Source: Candidatus Latescibacterota bacterium (GTDB lineage Bacteria; Latescibacterota; UBA2968; UBA8231). From it: a stretch of DNA of 64,000 nucleotides. The stretch lies in the NCBI GenBank assembly GCA_965223905.1, contig CBDCXV010000001.1:1536001-1600000 (forward strand), in the 5' to 3' direction. Shown here piece by piece: positions 5,848 through 15,710 of the stretch (position 1 is its first letter; the number at the start of each line of letters is the position of its first letter). A program made the position numbers and the translations under genes. The notes below the pieces were generated by a model. It was not told the origin of the DNA. It did no database searches and saw only the letters and a list, made by a program, of their open reading frames with translations.

Positions 5848-7035
5848 TCAGCGTGAAAGATCTCCGCAAAAAACCTGGCGAGCGGGTTTGCAAGGAATCC
5901 AGGGATGGTAGATGGCGAAGAAGAGGCCTCCATCTCCCGACCGGCAGAAAATCTCCATCGCACGCCGCATGATGCGCTCTTCGCTGATGAATGGCACGTC
6001 GAGCTCCCGTACGCTCCAGTGGGCGAGGTTCAACTCCCTGTAGCCCACCATCTTCATCGAATCCACCATGTGCGGTCCCAATGCCGGATCCAGCCTCTCC
6101 GTCGATGTCGCAGGCAGGAAGAGGACGACTTGTTGCTGTCGCCCGCTGTACAGATGGAAGGACAGGTAACGATCCCAGAGGCCGGTGTAGTAGGCCGCGG
6201 GCATGGCCAGGACGAGAACGGCGACGAGGGCCGCCAACCCCTGTAACCGCCCTCCCTGGAGGAAGGCTTCGCGCCAGCGGACGGGAGGGCCCCGGAAGAA
6301 GAGGGACAGCGCGATGAGGAGCATGCAGATGTTCCAAGGCCAGACGACGACGTTGGCGTGTTCCCTGGGTGCAATCAGCAGGAGGATGATCAGATGCATC
6401 GAGCAGGCCAGGATGGCGGCCCGGTTGCGGGTTCGATTGAAGCAGAGTCCCAGTGCGATTCCCAGCTCTATCCAGGGGATCAACCGCCCGCAAAGGAGAA
6501 CGGCCTCGCGAAGGCCCCCCTCGAGGGTTCCGATAACCGGCGCCAGGAGATACCCCTCGTAGAGATTGGCAAAACCGGAGCCCATGAAGTCCAACTTGTG
6601 GACCCCTCCCCAGAACAGTACCCCGACCACGACCATCCTCTGGATGTGAAGGAGCACCGGGTGCCCGGCAGCGGCCGACAGGGAAACCGCCAGGGGCAGC
6701 GTCATGAGGAGATAGAAGTAGAACCAGGGTTGCCACCGCATCTGATCGAGGAACAGCAGGACCGCACCGAGGGCCAGGAACAGGATCGGGAAAGCCCGGC
6801 GCAGGGGTTTTGCCGCGATGCCCGCCGCCGCGGCGAGCAGGGCAAGAACGAGGACGATGTCGGTGGGATAGGGCGGCTGCGGGACGCCGTCGACGACGGG
6901 GAAATGGGGGAAATGCCTCGACGTCACCCAGAGCTTCCAGGAGATCAGGACCCCCAGGATGGCGCCGCAAGCGACAACTCGCTGGGTGAACAGGACCCGT
7001 GATAGGTGGCCTGCTTTTGCCTCCTCGTGGATCAT
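5848..7035 (-). CDS. Polytopic membrane protein (HTTM/DoxX-like)
   Basis: About 8 hydrophobic segments; DQMRWQPWFY motif; start taken at MIHEE (7035). Confidence 0.55.
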   Translation of the reverse strand: MIHEEAKAGHLSRVLFTQRVVACGAILGVLISWKLWVTSRHFPHFPVVDGVPQPPYPTDIVLVLALLAAAAGIAAKPLRRAFPILFLALGAVLLFLDQMRWQPWFYFYLLMTLPLAVSLSAAAGHPVLLHIQRMVVVGVLFWGGVHKLDFMGSGFANLYEGYLLAPVIGTLEGGLREAVLLCGRLIPWIELGIALGLCFNRTRNRAAILACSMHLIILLLIAPREHANVVVWPWNICMLLIALSLFFRGPPVRWREAFLQGGRLQGLAALVAVLVLAMPAAYYTGLWDRYLSFHLYSGRQQQVVLFLPATSTERLDPALGPHMVDSMKMVGYRELNLAHWSVRELDVPFISEERIMRRAMEIFCRSGDGGLFFAIYHPWIPCKPARQVFCGDLSR

Positions 7036-7202
7036 CGATACACCGGGAACCTGTCCGAGTATCCCGTCCTGGCTGCCTGCACGGCGGCAGCCAGGCGGCC
7101 GTCTGTCAAAGCGAACACCCGGGCAGGCTCGCTTCAACGATCCCGGCGAAGCCCGGGGTTGGCCACTCCCGAAAGGTCCAGTCGTTCCCGGCATGTTCTG
7201 GA

Positions 7203-7371
7203 ATCCGTATCGCCGGCACGGTACCTTTCTGCAAAGAAACAAATTTAACCGCTACGATAGCGAAGCAGCCTGCCAAAATTAAGAAAGCCAAGGGTTGCGC
7301 CGGTGAAAGCCGCCCGGGGAGCAGCCCGGCGGCGTCCCGGACATCCTCCGCAGGATGCCGGCGATACGGAT
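7203..7371. repeat. 16-bp perfect inverted repeat enclosing an AT-rich intergenic core
   Basis: ATCCGTATCGCCGGCA (7203-7218) and TGCCGGCGATACGGAT (7356-7371) lie between divergent genes. Confidence 0.8.
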
Positions 7372-7470
7372 GCGGCTGACTGTCCACCTCGTTGGCGGCC
7401 CCTGCTGTTCCCGCGGCGTCCGCAGCGCGGCTACCGGGTTCGTGCCCCGGCCCGAGAAAGGGAGCAAGTC

Positions 7471-9537
7471 ATGAGATCGTTGCCGTTGATGCTGTTCACC
7501 TGCCTCTCCGTATCCGCCCAGGAAGTGCTGCTGGTGGATAAATCGCTGCAGGACCCCATCGCCTTCAAGCCTTTCTTCGAGGATTTTCCGAAAAACGGGC
7601 TCGAGCTCCGCTATCGCCGTTTCCACCCGTCCCTCGTCCTCGATGACGGCGAACGGTTCGATGTGATCATGGTGGCGGGAGGCACCCACCCCGACCCCGC
7701 TGCGACGCACTTGATTCCCGAAGAAGCGGCCCTGCTGACGCGGTTCGTCCGGGGCGGCGGCACCGCCGTCTTCCTGTTCGCCGACCGTTCGACCGACAAC
7801 TACATCTTCAACACCATCCTCGACTCGCTGGGAATCGCCGTGCGCATCGAGGGCAAGCGCATCGAGGACCCGCTGGGCCCGAAGGCGACCATCATTCCAG
7901 CCACCCACTATCTGCATCTGCCCCGGGTCTTCGTCTCCCCCGGTACGCCGCTGGGCGAGGGCATCGAAAACCCGATCGCCGGCGGCAGGTTGCTATCTCT
8001 CCTGATCGGACGGGCCGAGGGCCTGGAGATCCCGGCCTGGAGCGCCACTACCTCGATGCGGCGCGTCGAGGTTGCAGACACCCCCCAAAGGGCCCGCGAG
8101 GCGACCTACGCGGCACAGGCGCGCTCGTACGCGGCGGTGGTGACGGCCGGTGCCGGCAAGGGAAAGGTGATCCTGCTTCCCAGGTACCTGATCAACCTGA
8201 ACGGCTACACCGGCCTGGGGTCGGACAAGCCGGTCGTCCCCCCTTATTTCCTCGAGGACAACAGGCGCTTCGAGCACAATCTGGCACGCTACATCGGCGC
8301 CATCGCCCGCGGCGAATACACGCCGCGGGACGGGATCCCGCTCAGCCGCATCGACAACCTCGACGATTCCAGCGGACTCCCCGAGCCGGAGTTCAGGTTC
8401 CGGAAGGCCGCTCTCGATCCGTCCGCCCGCGAACAGGACTACGACCGGCTGTTGCCCTTTGCAGACGTGCCGCCCCGGCTGCCGGCCTTTCTCGGAGGCC
8501 AGAAGGTCAGGAGCGCCCACGTTTCCCCGCCGGCGAAAGAGCAGGCGCAGGCAGCCTGCCAGACCTTCGAGGATATGGGGCTGAATCTCCTTTACGTCTG
8601 GGGTCTGCGCATGGACCGGGATGAGTCGGGGGAGTTCGAGAAGATCAACGAGCGCAGCGCGGCCTTCCTCGACCATTGTGGCCAGGCAGGATTGAAGGTC
8701 ATGATCTGGGGGTATCACACGGCTACCTGGCTGTGGCAGAACAATGAGCTGCCAACTACCCTCGTTGACGGTACGGGCCGGGTCTACCGGCCGCCCTCCC
8801 CTGTCGATCCGGACACCTGGCACCGCAGCATGACCGAAAAAGCGCGTGAGTATGCCCTCATTGCACGCGAGTATCCGGAAACCGTGGTCGGCACCATGTG
8901 GGACCTGGAGATCTACAACCACCCCGGCCTGAGGATCACCGAAGCCCACGGCTTCGACAATCTCTCCTTCGCCACCTTCGTCGAGACCGAAGGGAAGCGC
9001 CTGCGCGAGGCCGGCCTGTTCGCGGAGGCCTACCGCGTCGACCAGGCGCGGCGCTTTCGCTGGCTCGAGTCGAACGGCCTGCTCAAGAGCTACTACCAAG
9101 CCCTCGAGGAGGGTGTCTACCGCCTTGCCACGCAGACCCGGGAAGAGATCGACGAGGTCTACCCCGGACTGTTGTGGGGACTCTATGCCCCCAACATACC
9201 CCAGAGCTGGTACTACCGGGGCGTGTTCCGCGGTCTGGTCGGCGAGGACAACTCCATCCTCCACATCACCTGGGCGTCCAGAGGCGCCCAGCAGGTCTCT
9301 TACTGGAAGAGCACAATCGGTATCGATCTCATCCACATGCCCGCCATGCTCATGGTGGTGCCGGAGGGCGCCGAATGGGAATCCTACCTGCGCATGTGTC
9401 TGGAAAACGAAGCCGGATACTGGCTCTACGACGCCACTTCACTGATACGGCCCGATCCCGCCAACTGGCGCAGCCGAATGGAGCTGCGAGAGCCTCCCGA
9501 CACCGTCATCGAACACATCAGACGGGCCAACGAATAA
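7471..9537 (+). CDS. Secreted hypothetical protein (GATase-like N-terminus, GH-like TIM-barrel C-terminus)
   Basis: Signal peptide MRSLPLMLFTCLSVSAQ after a GGGAG RBS; LTRFVRGGG and WDLEIY motifs. Confidence 0.55.
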   Translation: MRSLPLMLFTCLSVSAQEVLLVDKSLQDPIAFKPFFEDFPKNGLELRYRRFHPSLVLDDGERFDVIMVAGGTHPDPAATHLIPEEAALLTRFVRGGGTAVFLFADRSTDNYIFNTILDSLGIAVRIEGKRIEDPLGPKATIIPATHYLHLPRVFVSPGTPLGEGIENPIAGGRLLSLLIGRAEGLEIPAWSATTSMRRVEVADTPQRAREATYAAQARSYAAVVTAGAGKGKVILLPRYLINLNGYTGLGSDKPVVPPYFLEDNRRFEHNLARYIGAIARGEYTPRDGIPLSRIDNLDDSSGLPEPEFRFRKAALDPSAREQDYDRLLPFADVPPRLPAFLGGQKVRSAHVSPPAKEQAQAACQTFEDMGLNLLYVWGLRMDRDESGEFEKINERSAAFLDHCGQAGLKVMIWGYHTATWLWQNNELPTTLVDGTGRVYRPPSPVDPDTWHRSMTEKAREYALIAREYPETVVGTMWDLEIYNHPGLRITEAHGFDNLSFATFVETEGKRLREAGLFAEAYRVDQARRFRWLESNGLLKSYYQALEEGVYRLATQTREEIDEVYPGLLWGLYAPNIPQSWYYRGVFRGLVGEDNSILHITWASRGAQQVSYWKSTIGIDLIHMPAMLMVVPEGAEWESYLRMCLENEAGYWLYDATSLIRPDPANWRSRMELREPPDTVIEHIRRANE

Positions 9538-9931: not shown

Positions 9932-10855
9932 ATGAATGTCGCCGATACCCGCGCTGTGCTGACAGGCAACGCGGTCGCCGTACCCACCACCATCTGGAAG
10001 CGGCCGGGGGTGCTCGATCCGGAAGCGAACGCCGCGAACGCCGAGTTCCTGTTCGCCAACGGCATCACCTCCGCCGTGTACGCCGGCGGCGTCGGCGAGC
10101 ACGACCGGCTGTCGCCGGAGCAGCAGGTCGAGCTGCTCGCCGCGGTCGCCGCCGCGGTCCGCGGCAAAGCGGACAATCCCTGCCTGGGGACCGGGCTCGG
10201 CCGCACCCTGGAGCGGGTGAAACAGCTGGCGCCAGCCCTTGCCGATCTCGACATCGCCTTCGCCATGATGATGCCCCCGGCCACCGGCGATCCGGAGGAG
10301 CAGTTCGCCTATTTCAGCGAGGTCATGGGGATTCTGACCGAGCACGGGATCGGGCCGATGCTCTACCCGCGGCCTGAGCACCCGATGGAGGTCTCCACTC
10401 TGGAGCGGCTGATGGACGTCTGCGAGGTGCCGGGGGTGAAGCTGGCGAACAACGGCATGCTGCTTGAGTACGCCGAAATGGTCGCCCGCCTCGGGCACGA
10501 GCGCACCGCCTGGCTGTGCGGTACAGCCGGGTGGTGGATGCCGGCGTACGCCGCGGTCGGGGCGGCGCGCGGCATGTCGACGGGGATCGGCAACGCCTTC
10601 CCGGACAAGCCCCTCGACCTGCTGAGGCGCCTTGCCGACGGCAGCTTCGAGCGGGACGACACCTACTGGACGATGGTCCGCATCGAGCAGATCCGCCAGC
10701 GCGACAAGTCGTACATCGCCCTGGTCATCAAGCAGCTGCAGGAGCTGGCCGGCCTTGCCGGCGGCATGAACGGGGACGGCTCCGAGCTGCCGGCCGCGGT
10801 CAAGAGCGAGGTCGAGACCCTGGTGCGGGAGGCCTGCTGGCTGAGCGGCCGCTGA
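9932..10855 (+). CDS. Dihydrodipicolinate synthase family (DapA-like) aldolase/dehydratase
   Basis: VAVPTT, YAGGVGE, MLYPR and GVKLA (Schiff-base Lys) motifs; GGAG RBS before ATG 9932. Confidence 0.8.
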   Translation: MNVADTRAVLTGNAVAVPTTIWKRPGVLDPEANAANAEFLFANGITSAVYAGGVGEHDRLSPEQQVELLAAVAAAVRGKADNPCLGTGLGRTLERVKQLAPALADLDIAFAMMMPPATGDPEEQFAYFSEVMGILTEHGIGPMLYPRPEHPMEVSTLERLMDVCEVPGVKLANNGMLLEYAEMVARLGHERTAWLCGTAGWWMPAYAAVGAARGMSTGIGNAFPDKPLDLLRRLADGSFERDDTYWTMVRIEQIRQRDKSYIALVIKQLQELAGLAGGMNGDGSELPAAVKSEVETLVREACWLSGR

Positions 10856-10993
10856 GCTCTCCCGCCGGGGTCAGAACTTCCCGCTCTGAAGGTCGCCGAC
10901 GATGTCGGCGAGGCAGCCGGCGATCGCCTCGAACATGCGCTCCCCCTTTTCCGCCGAGCCGAAGGTGGGGTCGCCGTAGATCCCCTGCTCCGT
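10819..10993 (+). repeat. 175-bp direct repeat, copy 1 (real DapA-like 3' end plus silent creatininase 3' end)
   Basis: Matches 13818-13992 with 6 mismatches by manual alignment. Confidence 0.95.
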
Positions 10994-11038
10994 GTTTTGT
11001 CCATCTTATGGGCACGTTTCCGGGAGGAGACGACAGTG

Positions 11039-13330
11039 ATGAAGCTTGACCGTTCTCAGTTAGAATTCTGCCGCTCGGACGCGGATCACATCCGGCTGTT
11101 GGCGCCCGCAGGGTGCGGCAAGACGTTTGCACTGCTGCATCGGTGCCGTGAGCTGGCAAGTCAGGCGCGCCACGCCGAACGATTTCTGATCGTCACGTTC
11201 ACCAAGTCAGCGACCACTGAGCTTGAACTACGGCTTGCGCGCGATCGGGATTTTGAGTCGATCCGGGATCAGGTGACGATCAGCACATTGAACGCGTACG
11301 GTTTTCGTCGAATGCGGAATGAGATCAAGGCGCCAAAGCTGCTCTCCTCAAGGAATGATCTGCATTTCGCCATGAGGAATCAGTTGCGGCCGCTGTGGAC
11401 CGTCAAACCCCACTTGGAGGGTGTGATCAATCGGCGCGGAAACGGCGCGCGACAGTTGATGACCGTGATGGACAGCCTGAAGGCGCTGGGGTTCGATCAC
11501 ACCAAGGACACAAACTTCGACAGGTTCAGCGAACATCTGCAGCGGCTACGGGGTCAAGGCTTGGACGCGCAAATCGACGCTCAGTTTGACGTACTGACGA
11601 GGGTGAAGGTGTTGGAGAGCAAGTCCCGCAATGGCGAAGAGGCCCCGGAAGACAGCCCGCGGCAAATGTACAACCGATTCTTCACCTTCTGGCGCGATGC
11701 GGTCTCGCGTCTGCACGAGGAGTCGACCTTTACCTTCGAGGACCAGAAATACTGGTGTTGGCTCGACCTACGGTCCCCGGACAAGGCGGGTAAACGGAAG
11801 CCCCCGGTGACGGGTGTAGCCCGTTTCGACCACATCCTGATCGACGAGTTTCAAGACATCAACCCACTCGACCTGGAACTGATTCGGACGCTGGCGGACC
11901 GACACCGCGCGAGCATCGCGATCGTCGGCGACGACGACCAGGCCATCTTCGAGTGGCGCGGAGCTACGCCTGAGTACATCCTCAATCCCGAGGTCTACTT
12001 CGGCAACCCGTTCCAGACGTACGTGCTTGGCGTCAACTACCGGTCGCCGGCAAACATCGTCGAGTTATCGCAAAACCTCATTCGACATAATTTGAGCCGC
12101 GTCGGGAAGCAGGTGACTGCCGTTCCCGGAGCGCCACGAGCGGTGATTGAGATGCGACCAACTGATTCGATTGGCGAACGTCTCGAACTGGTTTCGAAGA
12201 TCGCGCGAAAACTTCCGCATCCCGGAAAAGTCGCCGTGATTGGGCGCACCCGGGCTCAACTGATCCCCTACGAGGTGTATTACGCCTCCGATGGCGGACC
12301 TGTGCAGATGGCGACTGACCTGGATGTCTTCGCGAGCACGGCATTTGACGGACTTCTCCACCTGCTCGAAATCTGGGAACGACGCGAGGACCGGCGGAGA
12401 TCCCGACAAGTGATTGAGGAGGCCGTCGATGTGTTCAATGCGATCCGCCGTGCGCCCTTCAGCAAAAAGAATGATCGCGAGGTTCGCACCTTTCTCCAGC
12501 GTCTGGATGCGCGAACCTGTGCGGACGCTATCAAGTCGATGGCCGACTACGAGGGGCCTAGATTGTCCGGTAAGACCCACGAGCATCTCGCCGAAATGGG
12601 CAGCAATTTCATTTGCACAGGTGAAGTGTGGGAAGCGATCAGCGCGATCGCCGATGGATTCGACGGTCTGCGATTCGATTTTGAGAAGGCTGAAGACGAC
12701 GTTTGGTACACTGACCCGCCACTCCAGCAGTTGGCCGATATGGCCCACGAGCAGCAAATGAATGTGGACGACCTGATCGACCGCTTGGAGCGAGCTCGCG
12801 ATCAACTTCGGCACTATCAGGGATTCGAGGATGATTCAGGCGATGGTGGCGACGACGCTGAGCGTCCGCTGCATCTGATGACGGCAACCCGGGCGAAGGG
12901 GAAAGAATTCGACACCGTCATCATGCTCGACACGGTCGAGACAATCTGGCCTCACAGGCGCGCACACTCCGTCCGAGAAATCGAGGCTGAGCGACGGCTC
13001 TTCTACGTCGCCTTCACACGGGCGCGACAGCGCGTGATCATGCTCACGGCCGAGGGCGCACCGACCAGCCGCTTCGTCAGGGAGCTGGAGCTCCCAAAAG
13101 TTTGCGGTATTGATAACACGCCCGGGGTCAGCGGCGGAGAACCTCGCATTGTTGGCAGCCGCATTCCGGTCTGGGTTTTGGTGCAGGCCAGCAAATTGGG
13201 CATGGATGAAGCTGACCTTTTGCGCACCTACCCCACCTTGAAGTCGGAGGACTTGGCCAATGCCCGGGCTTATTTCAGGTCGCACCGCGCAGAAATCGAA
13301 CAGCAGATCGCCGACAACGAGTCGGCTTGA
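11039..13330 (+). CDS. UvrD/Rep (SF1) helicase fused to C-terminal DUF433 antitoxin domain
   Basis: GGAGGAG RBS. SF1 motifs APAGCGKT, VTFTKSA, IDEFQD, VGDDDQAIFEWRGA, NYRS, AKGKEFD, ERRLFYVAFTRAR. C-terminal GIDNTPGVSGGEPRIVGSRIPVW...YPTL...L is DUF433. Confidence 0.9.
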   Translation: MKLDRSQLEFCRSDADHIRLLAPAGCGKTFALLHRCRELASQARHAERFLIVTFTKSATTELELRLARDRDFESIRDQVTISTLNAYGFRRMRNEIKAPKLLSSRNDLHFAMRNQLRPLWTVKPHLEGVINRRGNGARQLMTVMDSLKALGFDHTKDTNFDRFSEHLQRLRGQGLDAQIDAQFDVLTRVKVLESKSRNGEEAPEDSPRQMYNRFFTFWRDAVSRLHEESTFTFEDQKYWCWLDLRSPDKAGKRKPPVTGVARFDHILIDEFQDINPLDLELIRTLADRHRASIAIVGDDDQAIFEWRGATPEYILNPEVYFGNPFQTYVLGVNYRSPANIVELSQNLIRHNLSRVGKQVTAVPGAPRAVIEMRPTDSIGERLELVSKIARKLPHPGKVAVIGRTRAQLIPYEVYYASDGGPVQMATDLDVFASTAFDGLLHLLEIWERREDRRRSRQVIEEAVDVFNAIRRAPFSKKNDREVRTFLQRLDARTCADAIKSMADYEGPRLSGKTHEHLAEMGSNFICTGEVWEAISAIADGFDGLRFDFEKAEDDVWYTDPPLQQLADMAHEQQMNVDDLIDRLERARDQLRHYQGFEDDSGDGGDDAERPLHLMTATRAKGKEFDTVIMLDTVETIWPHRRAHSVREIEAERRLFYVAFTRARQRVIMLTAEGAPTSRFVRELELPKVCGIDNTPGVSGGEPRIVGSRIPVWVLVQASKLGMDEADLLRTYPTLKSEDLANARAYFRSHRAEIEQQIADNESA

Positions 13331-13334
13331 AAAC

Positions 13335-13673
13335 GTGGCGCGCCTGTACTCCAATGAGAATTTCCCCTTCCCGGTGGTAGAGGCGCTCCGCGGGTTGGGC
13401 TACGACGTGTTGACCATTCAGGAAACAGGCAAAGGGGGCAAAAGCATCGAGGACGAGAAGGTTCTGGAATTTGCCTGTGCCGGCGATCGGATTCTTCTCA
13501 CTCTCAACCGCAAGCATTTTATCGGCCTGCATCAGAAACAACCGGATCACTGTGGCATTATCGTTTGTACTTTTGACCCGGATTTTGTCGGGCAGGCCCA
13601 ACGCATTCACGAGGCCATAGCTGGATCCCCAACTTCTGGAAAGTTGCTTCGCGTCAACAGGCCTGCGATTTGA
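13335..13673 (+). CDS. DUF5615 family PIN-like toxin (VapC45-like)
   Basis: GTG start 4 nt after the helicase stop; RLYSNENFP, GYDVLT, DEKVL and RILLTLNRKHF motifs. Confidence 0.85.
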   Translation: MARLYSNENFPFPVVEALRGLGYDVLTIQETGKGGKSIEDEKVLEFACAGDRILLTLNRKHFIGLHQKQPDHCGIIVCTFDPDFVGQAQRIHEAIAGSPTSGKLLRVNRPAI

Positions 13674-13817
13674 GATTCGGCTACTTGTGGAAGCAAGGGT
13701 TCTTCGAGGGGCCAATCAGTCAGAATGACCTCGTCTCCTGGTTGGAAGAGCTTGCCGGGGTAACGAAGCGCCTCGCGTCTGTGAAAATTCTGTCTCCAAC
13801 GGCGACTCGTACCCAAG

Positions 13818-13992
13818 CCTGGTGCGGGAGGCCTGCTGGCTGAGCGGCCGCTGAGCTTTCGCGCCGGCCTCAGAACTTCCCGCTCTGAAGGTCGCCGACG
13901 ATGTCGGCGAGGCAGCCGGCGATCGCCTCGAACATGCGTTCCCCCTTCTCCGCCGAGCCGAAGGTGGGGTCGCCGTAGATCCCCTGCTCCGT
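13818..13992 (+). repeat. 175-bp direct repeat, copy 2 (silent DapA-like 3' end plus real creatininase 3' end)
   Basis: Matches 10819-10993. Confidence 0.95.
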
Positions 13993-14613
13993 CATCTCGT
14001 CCATGCGCAGGAACTGCGACACCCGGTCCTCGTACTCCGATTCGGGATGAGTGCCGTCGCGCGGGGGCAGCTCCCCTTTGACGAGATCCGGCCGGATCGA
14101 CAGCATCAGCGACGTCTCCATCTCGCCGGCATGCCCCCAGCCGTGAGGGCCGGCCTCGCGGATCTCGTCGAGAAGGGGCTCGGCCGCCTTCCAGTGCGAC
14201 ACCGCGAACACGCGCGATTCCGGGTAGCGCTCCTTCACCTTCTGCAGGGCGACGGCCATGTCCGGCTGGTTGCCGCCGTGGCCGTTGACGATCAGCACCC
14301 TGGGAAAGCCGGCTTCGATCAGGCAGCCGACGGTCTCGGCGATGAGGTTGACGTGGGTCTCCGAGGTCGCCGTAATGCTGCCGGCGAAGCGCATGTGGTG
14401 GAAGGAGTACCCCAGCCACTGCGTCGGCAGGCAGACGACCTCGCCGGGCAGCTGCCGCTCGAGGCGCGCGACCACCTCGTCGGTCTCCATGGTGTCGGTG
14501 AGGAACGGCAGGTGGGGGCCGTGCTGCTCGAAGGAGGCGATCGGGTAGACGGCCACCAGGTTGCTCTTGTCGAGGGCCGCGACTTCCGGCCAGGTCATTT
14601 CACCCAGTTTCAT
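13870..14613 (-). CDS. Creatininase/creatinine amidohydrolase family protein
   Basis: EQHGPHLP..TD, NGHGGN, HAGEMETS and GIYGDP motifs. Confidence 0.92.
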   Translation of the reverse strand: MKLGEMTWPEVAALDKSNLVAVYPIASFEQHGPHLPFLTDTMETDEVVARLERQLPGEVVCLPTQWLGYSFHHMRFAGSITATSETHVNLIAETVGCLIEAGFPRVLIVNGHGGNQPDMAVALQKVKERYPESRVFAVSHWKAAEPLLDEIREAGPHGWGHAGEMETSLMLSIRPDLVKGELPPRDGTHPESEYEDRVSQFLRMDEMTEQGIYGDPTFGSAEKGERMFEAIAGCLADIVGDLQSGKF

Positions 14614-14651
14614 GAAGCTCCTTTCAGTTTTCGGATCGAGGGACTAACGCC

Positions 14652-15710
14652 GTGAACGATGCAAAGAAACGCAGGATCGCGACAGTGGGCGGAGACGGCG
14701 TCATCCGCCTCGAGGAACAGAACCTGCCACCACTCGGGGACGGCGCCGTTCTCGTGGAGGTGCACGCGTCGCTGGTCAGTCCGGGCAGCGAGCTGGGCGG
14801 CTGGCGCGGGCTGAGCCGCAGGCGCAGGTCGCCGGACCGCAGCATCGAACCGAAGCCGTTCGGCTACGCCAACTCCGGGGTGGTGCTCGAGGTCGGCGGC
14901 GGCGTCGACCGGTTCGAGGTGGGGGACCGGGTCTGCTGCATGGGCGGGGGGTACGCCTGCCACAGCGACTATGCGGTGGTGCCGCATCACCTGTGCGTCC
15001 ACCTGCCGGATGAGGTGACCTTCGCCCAGGGGGCCTACGGCCACCTGGCGGCCACGGCCCTCCACGCCTTGCGCCGCAACGCCCCGGAGTTCGGGGAGTA
15101 CACCGCGGTCGTCGGCCTCGGCCTCGTCGGACAGCTGACCGCCCAGGTCCACCGCCTGGCCGGCTGTTACGTGATCGGCTGGGACACCGTCGACCTGCGC
15201 CTGGAGACCGCCCGCAGGACCGGCATCGACGCCGCCGTCGACAGCGCCGCGGAAAGCGCCGCCGAGGCCACCGCCGCCTTCACCAGGGGGGAGGGCCTCG
15301 ACTCCGGGGTGATGGCCTTCGGAGGGGACGGCACCGAGGCGTTCGAGCAGCTGCAGGGCTGCCTGAAACGCGCCCCGGACGGCCCGCGCACCGGGCGCAT
15401 CGTCGTCGTCGGCGGAACCACCATCGACTACGCCGCGGCCACCTTCAACGTCGACATCCGCCGCTCCGCCCGGACCGGTCCGGGGTACCACGACGAGGAG
15501 TGGGAGCATGGAGCGGATTACCCGAAGGTGTACATGCGCTGGACCACGCGCACCAACCTCGAGCTCTGCATGCGGCTGATCGCCGAAGGGAAGCTGCAGG
15601 TCGACCCGCTGACGACGCATACGATCGCGCTGGAGGATGTGGAGAAGGAGGTCGAGCGCATCGTCGGAGAGCCGGACCGCATTCTCGGGGTGGTGTTCCG
15701 CTGCCGCTGA
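14652..15710 (+). CDS. Zinc-binding (MDR) alcohol dehydrogenase family protein
   Basis: SPGSE, GYANSG, GDRV and VVGLGLVGQ (Rossmann) motifs. Confidence 0.85.
   Translation: MNDAKKRRIATVGGDGVIRLEEQNLPPLGDGAVLVEVHASLVSPGSELGGWRGLSRRRRSPDRSIEPKPFGYANSGVVLEVGGGVDRFEVGDRVCCMGGGYACHSDYAVVPHHLCVHLPDEVTFAQGAYGHLAATALHALRRNAPEFGEYTAVVGLGLVGQLTAQVHRLAGCYVIGWDTVDLRLETARRTGIDAAVDSAAESAAEATAAFTRGEGLDSGVMAFGGDGTEAFEQLQGCLKRAPDGPRTGRIVVVGGTTIDYAAATFNVDIRRSARTGPGYHDEEWEHGADYPKVYMRWTTRTNLELCMRLIAEGKLQVDPLTTHTIALEDVEKEVERIVGEPDRILGVVFRCR

Follow-up and report, generated by a model that had tools for sequence, protein, structure and literature searches.

Pairs of PIN-domain proteins with COG2442 (DUF433) proteins were predicted by Makarova et al. 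to form a class of toxin–antitoxin systems (PMC2701414), and in the VapBC10 pair of Synechocystis (ssr2962/slr1767) the PIN toxin is neutralised by the COG2442 protein, which in addition binds to its own promoter and undergoes degradation by ClpXP2s (PMC3834315). In this work we analyse a two-gene cassette of this class in a 64,000-nucleotide (nt) stretch of the genome of a Candidatus Latescibacterota bacterium (the whole stretch is referred to as the window), in which a DUF433 domain forms the C-terminus of a UvrD-like helicase and is followed by a gene for a DUF5615 PIN-like protein.

The two families are known to occur together: COG4634, which corresponds to DUF5615, and COG2442 are a linked pair in a STRING network of the COGs enriched in sponge symbionts (PMC5649159). 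PIN toxins are found near restriction–modification genes, a proximity for which, according to PMC5499597, no direct interaction has been shown. The passages of PMC2701414 that mention DUF433 fusions name winged helix-turn-helix (wHTH) domains only. Two systems of other families are relevant as concepts. The type Ic restriction enzyme EcoprrI silences the anticodon nuclease PrrC until the Stp protein of phage T4 acts (PMC1484252, PMC2610378), and in Pez-Ham, where the Hachiman helicase–nuclease system is associated with PezAT, the toxin–antitoxin pair tunes the expression of the defence genes and does not itself defend (PMC13064477).

The window locus has the layout of VapBC10 and of the predicted PIN-COG2442 class, with a complete DUF433 immediately upstream of the PIN-like gene, on the same strand and at near-zero spacing (4 nt). 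The assignment of the two domains to a known type II pair, made in a first-pass annotation of the window, agrees with the prediction in PMC2701414 and with VapBC10 (PMC3834315).

Results

The fused helicase–DUF433 gene

The fused open reading frame (ORF) is an intact UvrD-like helicase in frame with a complete DUF433 domain (Table 1). Pfam places the UvrD-helicase domain at residues 5–316 (E 1.1e-32), UvrD_C at residues 597–671 (E 1.8e-23) and DUF433 at residues 691–745 (model positions 1–55 of 56, E 1.6e-14). All invariant columns of a 100-sequence family alignment (the window protein and 99 relatives) are kept in the window helicase, including Walker A G25/G27/K28/T29, D269/E270/Q272/D273, G297–Q301, Y334/R335, T615/R618 and T660/R661; with Walker A, DExx and motifs III–VI intact, the protein belongs to the UvrD/Rep/PcrA-like helicases of superfamily 1 (SF1). 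The junction reads ...SRFVRELELPKVC|GIDNTPGVSGG, as first written. Thus, three statements of the first-pass annotation hold as they were made: the SF1 motifs are intact, the frame is open from the helicase into DUF433, and the DUF5615 gene starts 4 nt past the stop of the fused ORF. The Pfam scan revealed no nuclease domain of the helicase's own. A housekeeping UvrD, PcrA or Rep was considered and rejected, the best score being 146.7 bits as compared with an NCBIfam equivalog cut-off of 911.

The motif GGGAGGAG occupies positions 11022–11029, 10 nt before the ATG at 11039. No small separate antitoxin of about 75–145 amino acids (aa) is encoded in this arrangement, there being no in-frame ATG, GTG or TTG between M668 and the DUF433 core. 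An RNA run (X21) yielded a single contig of 196 nt covering positions 13514–13709 with one difference, from a library that may contain DNA. The AlphaFold model of the fused protein, built from the 100-sequence alignment, has a mean predicted local distance difference test score (pLDDT) of 84.6 and a predicted template modelling score of 0.79; confidence is low at residues 689–707 and moderate (about 72–79) over the DUF433 helices, where only two sequences are aligned. A search of the Atlas with residues 590–763 returned UvrD_C clusters only, with scores of at most 0.88.

Distribution of the fusion

The helicase search gave 4,656 homologues at E ≤0.001 among 7,998 scored. DUF433 (PF04255) is present in one of the best 120 listed, P0001 (762 aa, 94% identical), and the other 119 are unfused, with lengths of 612–838 aa, identities of 53–68% and query coverage of 79–92%. 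In a 13-sequence alignment, 11 unfused relatives end between 0 and about 19 residues past a conserved ELxL. A toxin homologue that is 83% identical, P0124, is the presumed neighbour of P0001, the longest contig being 22,434 nt for both. Of 38 candidates of 419–1336 aa, a search scored on residues 684–763 picked out only P0001 and an unrelated protein of 465 aa.

The 80-aa tail was also compared using HMMER with 1.84 billion cluster representatives, resulting in 1,686 matches at E ≤0.001, of which the best 150 were listed. The top match, P0242 (96 aa, 90% identical), starts within the helicase C-terminus (MLTAEGAPTSRFV.ELELP...) and crosses the junction, so it is a fragment of a third fusion variant. 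Six of these 150 matches are at least 200 aa long; P0370 has no DUF433 by Pfam, and P0246 (389 aa) is a Mrr-type fusion. A contig from a third study (X6) spans positions 13019–13525 with 38 differences and no gaps, and the frame is therefore open across the junction there too.

Overall, three variants of the fusion, intact or partial, are known besides a decayed copy in a genome of another genus of the same family (G012); at least two variants, those of the window and P0001, are full-length and intact and differ at about 6% of residues. The same junction in P0001, P0242, the X6 contig and the G012 remnant means that the fusion is neither an assembly join nor a singleton, and a chimera or sequencing error at the junction of the window genome, for which nothing was found to speak, is practically negligible as an explanation; the assembly artefact was rejected on this basis. 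All fusion copies descend from one event. The first-pass annotation had reasoned that the fusion would fall if its closest homologues all ended near the junction and if it were a singleton or an assembly join. The former was borne out for 119 of the best 120 homologues, which are unfused and end near ELxLP, whereas the latter was not.

The neighbourhoods of 12 helicase homologues were examined, 10 of them in full and 2 in part, in a set that leaves out the closest homologues, P0002–P0010 (63–68% identical). No DUF433 or DUF5615 neighbour of the helicase was found among the 141 ORFs of these loci. An ancestral layout of helicase, DUF433 and DUF5615 as three separate genes was sought and not found in the 12 loci, the contexts of P0002–P0010 being outside this set. 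In one locus (L011, 2795–6064), a helicase relative of 55% identity lies behind an SMC_N-type ATPase of 368 aa, for which PADLOC gives a match to its model mad3.

The DUF433 tail and the origin of the join

The stand-alone DUF433 partners of the same toxin subfamily are 102–145 aa long, and five of them carry a conserved N-terminal helix, ...AEKAQLLQW..RDLGDAFPGIE, ahead of DUF433; the suspicion in the first-pass annotation that the window domain lacks its usual N-terminal extension was well founded. The window tail keeps 15 of the 17 near-invariant positions tabulated for DUF433, with S in place of T24. REL is common to the helicase end, ...VRELELP, and to the last residues of the stand-alone antitoxin extension, ...ARELNDEIPGI; this makes a microhomology-mediated deletion a plausible origin of the join.

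Codon-wise comparison of the window and G012 copies gave ratios of non-synonymous to synonymous substitution rates (dN/dS) of 0.14 in the N part of the helicase, 0.26 in its C part and 0.29 in the toxin. The ratio is 0.19 in the DUF433 tail, whose 79 codons differ by 10 synonymous and 7 non-synonymous changes, and the tail is thus shown to be under purifying selection. The G012 copy has a 316-nt deletion, 1-nt insertions after the positions corresponding to 12844 and 13041 and a TAA at codon P686, and its toxin is cut short at 13507.

The DUF5615 protein and its predicted pairing

The toxin subfamily is represented by 3,072 matches, the best of which are 65–89% identical to the window toxin. 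It is characterised by the motifs LYSNENFP...LTLNRKHF...RVNRP and by 20 invariant columns in 57 aligned sequences (63–89% identity). Its conserved polar residues form a non-canonical set, E8, D40, N58, R59, H66, H72, D81 and H92, with E8, D40 and D81 invariant. Where six paralogues in the same genome show the canonical D and DxD, the window toxin has SNEN and TLNRKHF. A dead toxin resulting from D-to-N changes was set aside, since these residues are conserved throughout the subfamily (alignments of 13 and 57 sequences from the 3,072 matches); this points to a variant active site and not to decay. The chemistry of this subfamily, to judge by these residues, may differ from that of typical PIN toxins. 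We also observed that, despite N in place of the canonical PIN aspartates (SNEN, TLN), the subfamily is among the best conserved small proteins encountered in this analysis.

The structural model of the toxin has a pLDDT of 90.9. The complex of the tail and the toxin was predicted with a score of 0.52, as compared with 0.00 for the best of three controls, which lends weak support to an interaction; at least 97% of the contacts were common to the runs, and the partner pLDDT was at least 78. In the calibration of the tool, 80 solved complexes and 110 mismatched pairs gave 58 and 2 passes, respectively, and the passes at scores of 0.60 or below comprised only 7 of the solved complexes and both mismatched pairs.

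A mobile cassette between two metabolic genes

Both genes are held in a 2.8-kilobase (kb) insert, in which the G+C fraction is 0.54–0.60 (11000–13999) as compared with 0.65–0.70 on either side. The insert lies between two copies of a 175-nt direct repeat (10819–10993 and 13818–13992; identical at 169 of 175 positions), which the first-pass annotation did not note, and is flanked by two convergent metabolic genes, encoding a dihydrodipicolinate synthase (DHDPS)-family protein and a creatininase. In a genome of the same genus (G002, locus L107), these flanks are contiguous with one copy of the repeat, which identifies an empty site; the two window copies match this single copy at 165 and 164 of 175 positions, which favours neither of them as the native one. 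The less GC-rich inserted cassette recognised in the first-pass annotation is thereby substantiated by the composition, the repeats and the empty site.

The second genome of the genus (G001, L106) carries a different insert of 2,268 base pairs (bp) at the same intergenic spot, with a 419-aa ORF, read from its sequence as an IS256-type transposase, and two smaller ORFs (160 and 91 aa). Neither of these genomes has the cassette, and a DNA search found no match to the helicase in 11 of 12 relatives of the family. The spot between the DHDPS-family and creatininase genes is an insertion hot spot, and the 175-nt flanking duplication is unusually long for a target duplication.

The G012 copy of the cassette is about 90% identical and lies in an unrelated place, beside an ORF read as hsdM, with a 102-nt part of the repeat behind it; the matches of that genome to the DHDPS-family and creatininase flanks lie elsewhere and are about 70% identical. 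The difference between 90% and 70%, together with the repeat piece, indicates a horizontal move that took part of the repeat along. The cassette has thus spread to a second genus. The G012 copy (L108, G012:C2; 3653–3916, about 6960–7067, 7030–8607) is itself bracketed by duplicated parts of the hsdM-like 3' end and of a short upstream sequence, so flanking duplications go with the cassette at the second site as well. The left duplicate is separated from the helicase remnant by a 147-aa ORF that looks glyoxalase-like by eye.

Other loci with DUF433 and DUF5615

The window genome and G012 are among the 6 of 168 genomes of the window's phylum in which the toxin was found; in another phylum, it was found in 6 of 401 genomes. 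At the 10 loci outside the window lineage, the DUF433 partner is stand-alone in 7, decayed in 1 and fused to a larger enzyme in 2 (Table 1). DUF433 precedes DUF5615 in the pairs of the window genome and of the foreign genomes alike. In G020, a 1,096-aa protein with ResIII, RE_endonuc and DUF433 is followed by DUF5615 and then by a 937-aa N6_N4 methylase, so that in this type III-like restriction–modification operon (L115, G020:C1, 1318–7751, minus strand) DUF5615 is situated between the res and methylase genes. In G140, a 390-aa protein with Mrr_cat and DUF433 lies behind a 927-aa MmeI-family enzyme and is followed by DUF5615 (L116, G140:C1, 5977–10488, minus strand). These Res and Mrr fusions to the same DUF433/DUF5615 subfamily are independent of the window fusion. 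The neighbourhood in G148 (L111) is as in G140, with a stand-alone DUF433 of 108 aa. Among the 150 DUF433 matches listed, of 726 in the 401 genomes of the other phylum, two open frames are at least 300 aa long (324 and 449 aa) and none is at least 600 aa long.

The window genome contains 15 DUF433 and 7 DUF5615 matches. A second C-terminal DUF433 fusion in it, of 402 aa with a G+C fraction of 0.50, is followed by a canonical DUF5615 (L005/L092, G000:C1, about 1294680–1296030); its N-terminal 320 aa gave no Pfam or PADLOC match. A 263-aa frame with NUDIX and DUF433 (L002, G000:C10, 922–1710) may represent a further fusion or a pair of genes with no stop between them. In L020 (955–6094) and L023 (772–6094), distant relatives of the helicase (32–34% identical) come immediately after type III restriction enzymes; these enzymes match PADLOC models at E about 1e-269, and their gene stop is overlapped by the helicase relative.

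Table 1. Coordinates of the cassette and its surroundings in the window, and state of the DUF433 partner at ten further loci.
Feature	Position or genome	Strand	Remarks
Left copy of direct repeat	10819..10993	.	true 3' end of DHDPS-family gene (stop 10855) and duplicated creatininase 3' remnant
Cassette left end and leader of fused gene	10994..11038	+	contains GGGAGGAG; no promoter-like match
Fused ORF	11039 (ATG) to 13330 (TGA 13328–13330)	+	763 aa, no internal stop
UvrD-like SF1 helicase part, residues 1–689	11039..13105	+	family-invariant residues all present
Fusion junction, P686-K-V-C-G690	13094..13108	+	unfused homologues stop at or just past here
DUF433 (COG2442) antitoxin-type domain, complete, with conserved C-terminal tail ...AEIEQQIADNESA and stop	13109..13330	+	
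DUF5615 (COG4634, Mut7-C group) PIN-like gene	GTG 13335..13673	+	112 aa; Pfam E 7.8e-20
Cassette right end, non-coding or content unknown	13674..13817	.	differs in X6 contig
Right copy of direct repeat	13818..13992	.	true creatininase 3' end and duplicated DHDPS-family 3' remnant
Creatininase gene	13873–14613	-	right flank of cassette
Stand-alone DUF433 partner	G148, G145, G185, G278, G492, G336, G405		
Decayed DUF433 partner	G465		
DUF433 fused to larger enzyme	G140, G020		

Beside the creatininase gene, a further segment of about 1 kb, at about 14645–15633 (to 15717 as compared with G001) and with an ORF at 14652–15710, has no counterpart in either same-genus genome; the matches to these two genomes jump from about 14644/14658 to 15634/15718.

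Discussion

Taken together, our results are best explained by a probably functional in-frame fusion, of single origin, between a helicase and the antitoxin of a PIN-COG2442 pair; we give this reading a probability of about 0.6. The join is real, young and confined to one lineage, and the fusion is single, tolerated and probably functional. In the mechanism that we propose, an accessory UvrD-like helicase, usually stand-alone and about 690 aa long, would have lost the region of its stop codon, and the adjacent PIN-COG2442 antitoxin gene would have lost its N-terminal extension of about 35 codons, resulting in one 763-aa protein with the PIN-like gene 4 nt behind. The two genes travel as a horizontally moved cassette of 2.8 kb. 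The DUF433 domain is still constrained and probably still pairs with the PIN-like protein; it would bind and neutralise the DUF5615 protein, the pair would work as an addiction or abortive-type module, and the antidote would now be tied to the helicase in its synthesis, stability and location. Toxin binding, toxicity and any coupling to helicase activity are what we infer. The DUF433 domain could also act in autoregulation.

Several observations weigh against this reading. The near-invariant W of DUF433 (55 of 59 relatives) is replaced by R in the window, P0001 and G012 and by Q in P0242, and the conserved N-terminal antitoxin helix is absent from the fusion. With N at the canonical D of two PIN motifs, nuclease activity of the toxin is not assured. 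Searches with its model returned only generic flavodoxin- or receiver-like alpha/beta folds (nothing in Foldseek at E 0.001 or better; best VIA-align Z 8.5), which agrees with the reduced PIN-like fold described in PMC5499597 for the Mut7-C group, a group without a solved structure in that account. The predicted tail–toxin complex is a weak pass only. One promoter-like and three terminator-like sites were found in the scan, no more than chance expects, and the lone promoter-like site (13013–13041, just before the junction) accordingly provides no evidence for an internal transcript. One of the four copies of the fusion, that in G012, is a pseudogene, and runs from two studies (X1, X3) contain the window form together with a G012-like decayed form. 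Because all copies belong to one young lineage, with tail identities of 89% or higher, they may persist simply for lack of time to decay.

Some of these points bear on a neutral accident on its way to decay, in which a deletion joined two neighbours without a selected joint function, and survival was due to recent transfer and residual addiction. The single young lineage, the G012 pseudogene, the absence of the cassette from both same-genus genomes and the loss of the W and of the N-terminal helix are what such an accident would leave; however, dN/dS of 0.14–0.29 in all four segments, an intact ORF in two or more full-length variants with differences at about 6% of residues between them, and the retention of all helicase invariants make it distinctly unlikely. 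It is highly improbable that DUF433 is instead a docking domain that recruits the PIN-like protein as a nuclease subunit, as in Gabija GajAB or Hachiman HamAB, without a toxin–antitoxin switch. The lack of a nuclease domain in the helicase, the tight 4-nt spacing, the weakly supported prediction of a tail–toxin interaction and the conserved non-canonical polar residues of the toxin subfamily would suit such an effector, but at 7 of the 10 other loci the toxin subfamily has a small stand-alone DUF433 protein as its partner, which is a toxin–antitoxin pattern; moreover, the ResIII and Mrr fusion partners have nucleases already, and 119 of the best 120 helicase homologues do without DUF433.

A guard arrangement, which sharpens the helicase-gated toxin release suggested in the first-pass annotation, would assign more to the helicase: the PIN-like toxin would be parked via DUF433 on a DNA-tracking enzyme and freed when a phage inhibits, degrades or stalls that enzyme, leading to abortive infection. 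The precedent is PrrC–EcoprrI (PMC1484252, PMC2610378), the window helicase keeps its motifs, other defence-type enzymes (Res in G020; Mrr in G140 and P0246) have independently become fused to the same DUF433/DUF5615 subfamily, two of ten partners are fused (beside seven stand-alone and one decayed) as against two long frames among 150 listed DUF433 matches, and distant helicase relatives stand directly behind type III restriction enzymes. We nevertheless regard it as unlikely, because every fusion is young and lineage-restricted, with the toxin in one of five genomes of G020's genus; the window cassette is situated among metabolic genes, outside any defence island; PADLOC has no DUF5615 model and gives the helicase only generic GajB/UvrD matches; the counts are low and come in part from a search that started from the focal case; and the G012 copy is a pseudogene in a lineage that has lost the W. 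Given the independent Res and Mrr fusions, the guard reading by analogy with PrrC–EcoprrI is worth testing. Its broader form, in which this DUF433 subfamily would be a portable covalent tether that parks a latent DUF5615 nuclease on a UvrD-like helicase, a type III restriction enzyme (G020) or a Mrr-type nuclease (G140), and the nuclease would be freed or activated once the enzyme is interfered with or engages foreign DNA, is rather doubtful; if true, it would represent a modular guard layer like PrrC–EcoprrI, made from a toxin–antitoxin pair.

Returning to the functional fusion, if the tethered antitoxin is functional, the cassette is a natural toxin–antitoxin pair whose antidote is built into a DNA motor enzyme, which, if true, bears on what triggers type II pairs during phage attack; the Res and Mrr fusions would then suggest that making a suicide nuclease respond to the state of a defence enzyme is a general principle. 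Even a fusion that is no more than tolerated would show that this DUF433 works without its N-terminal helix and on a large protein, which helps to map the functional parts of the antitoxin.

Comparison with known systems

We found no description of a helicase–DUF433 architecture in the literature on DUF433, DUF5615 and COG2442 with helicases, although the supplements of PMC5499597 and PMC2701414 may list DUF433 fusions; to this extent, the view of the first-pass annotation that it is not a named system stands. The interpretation given there is supported in part. Its analogy with Gabija did not survive as a matter of membership. The window helicase matches GajB-type UvrD models in PADLOC (best E 4.3e-43), but these matches reflect generic UvrD similarity, the PcrA, UvrD and Rep models scoring equally and far under their cut-offs, and there is no gene for GajA, an OLD-family ATPase-TOPRIM protein, in or beside the cassette. 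Gabija was therefore rejected: GajA is absent, the cassette consists of two genes, and the flanks are the DHDPS-family and creatininase genes.

PrrC–EcoprrI resembles the locus in concept, in that a defence enzyme that tracks DNA keeps an RNase-type toxin latent (PMC1484252, PMC2610378), and the related Res–DUF433 and Mrr–DUF433 proteins sit within restriction–modification loci. There is no sequence relationship, however; the tether here would be covalent and on the antitoxin side, and the window copy is without restriction–modification neighbours. Pez-Ham likewise couples a type II toxin–antitoxin pair genetically to a defence helicase (PMC13064477), but its genes are described as separate and not fused, and both the toxin–antitoxin and the helicase families are different.

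The closest systems remain those of the PIN-COG2442 class. In contrast to VapBC10, the window DUF433 is the C-terminus of a helicase of about 688 aa and not a small labile protein, its N-terminal extension is gone, and its partner is a COG4634/DUF5615 protein of the Mut7-C group with N at two canonical D positions, a putative toxin known from its sequence. VapB45/VapC45 (Rv2018/Rv2019) provides a precedent for a C-terminal DUF433 in a longer protein paired with a PIN-like gene of the Mut7-C group (PMC2701414; PDB 5af3 in PMC5499597); the DUF433 partner there is described as a small N-terminal DNA-binding wHTH domain, whereas that in the window is an enzyme. The pair class itself is known; what is new here is a type II PIN-COG2442 pair with its antitoxin domain fused to an enzyme.

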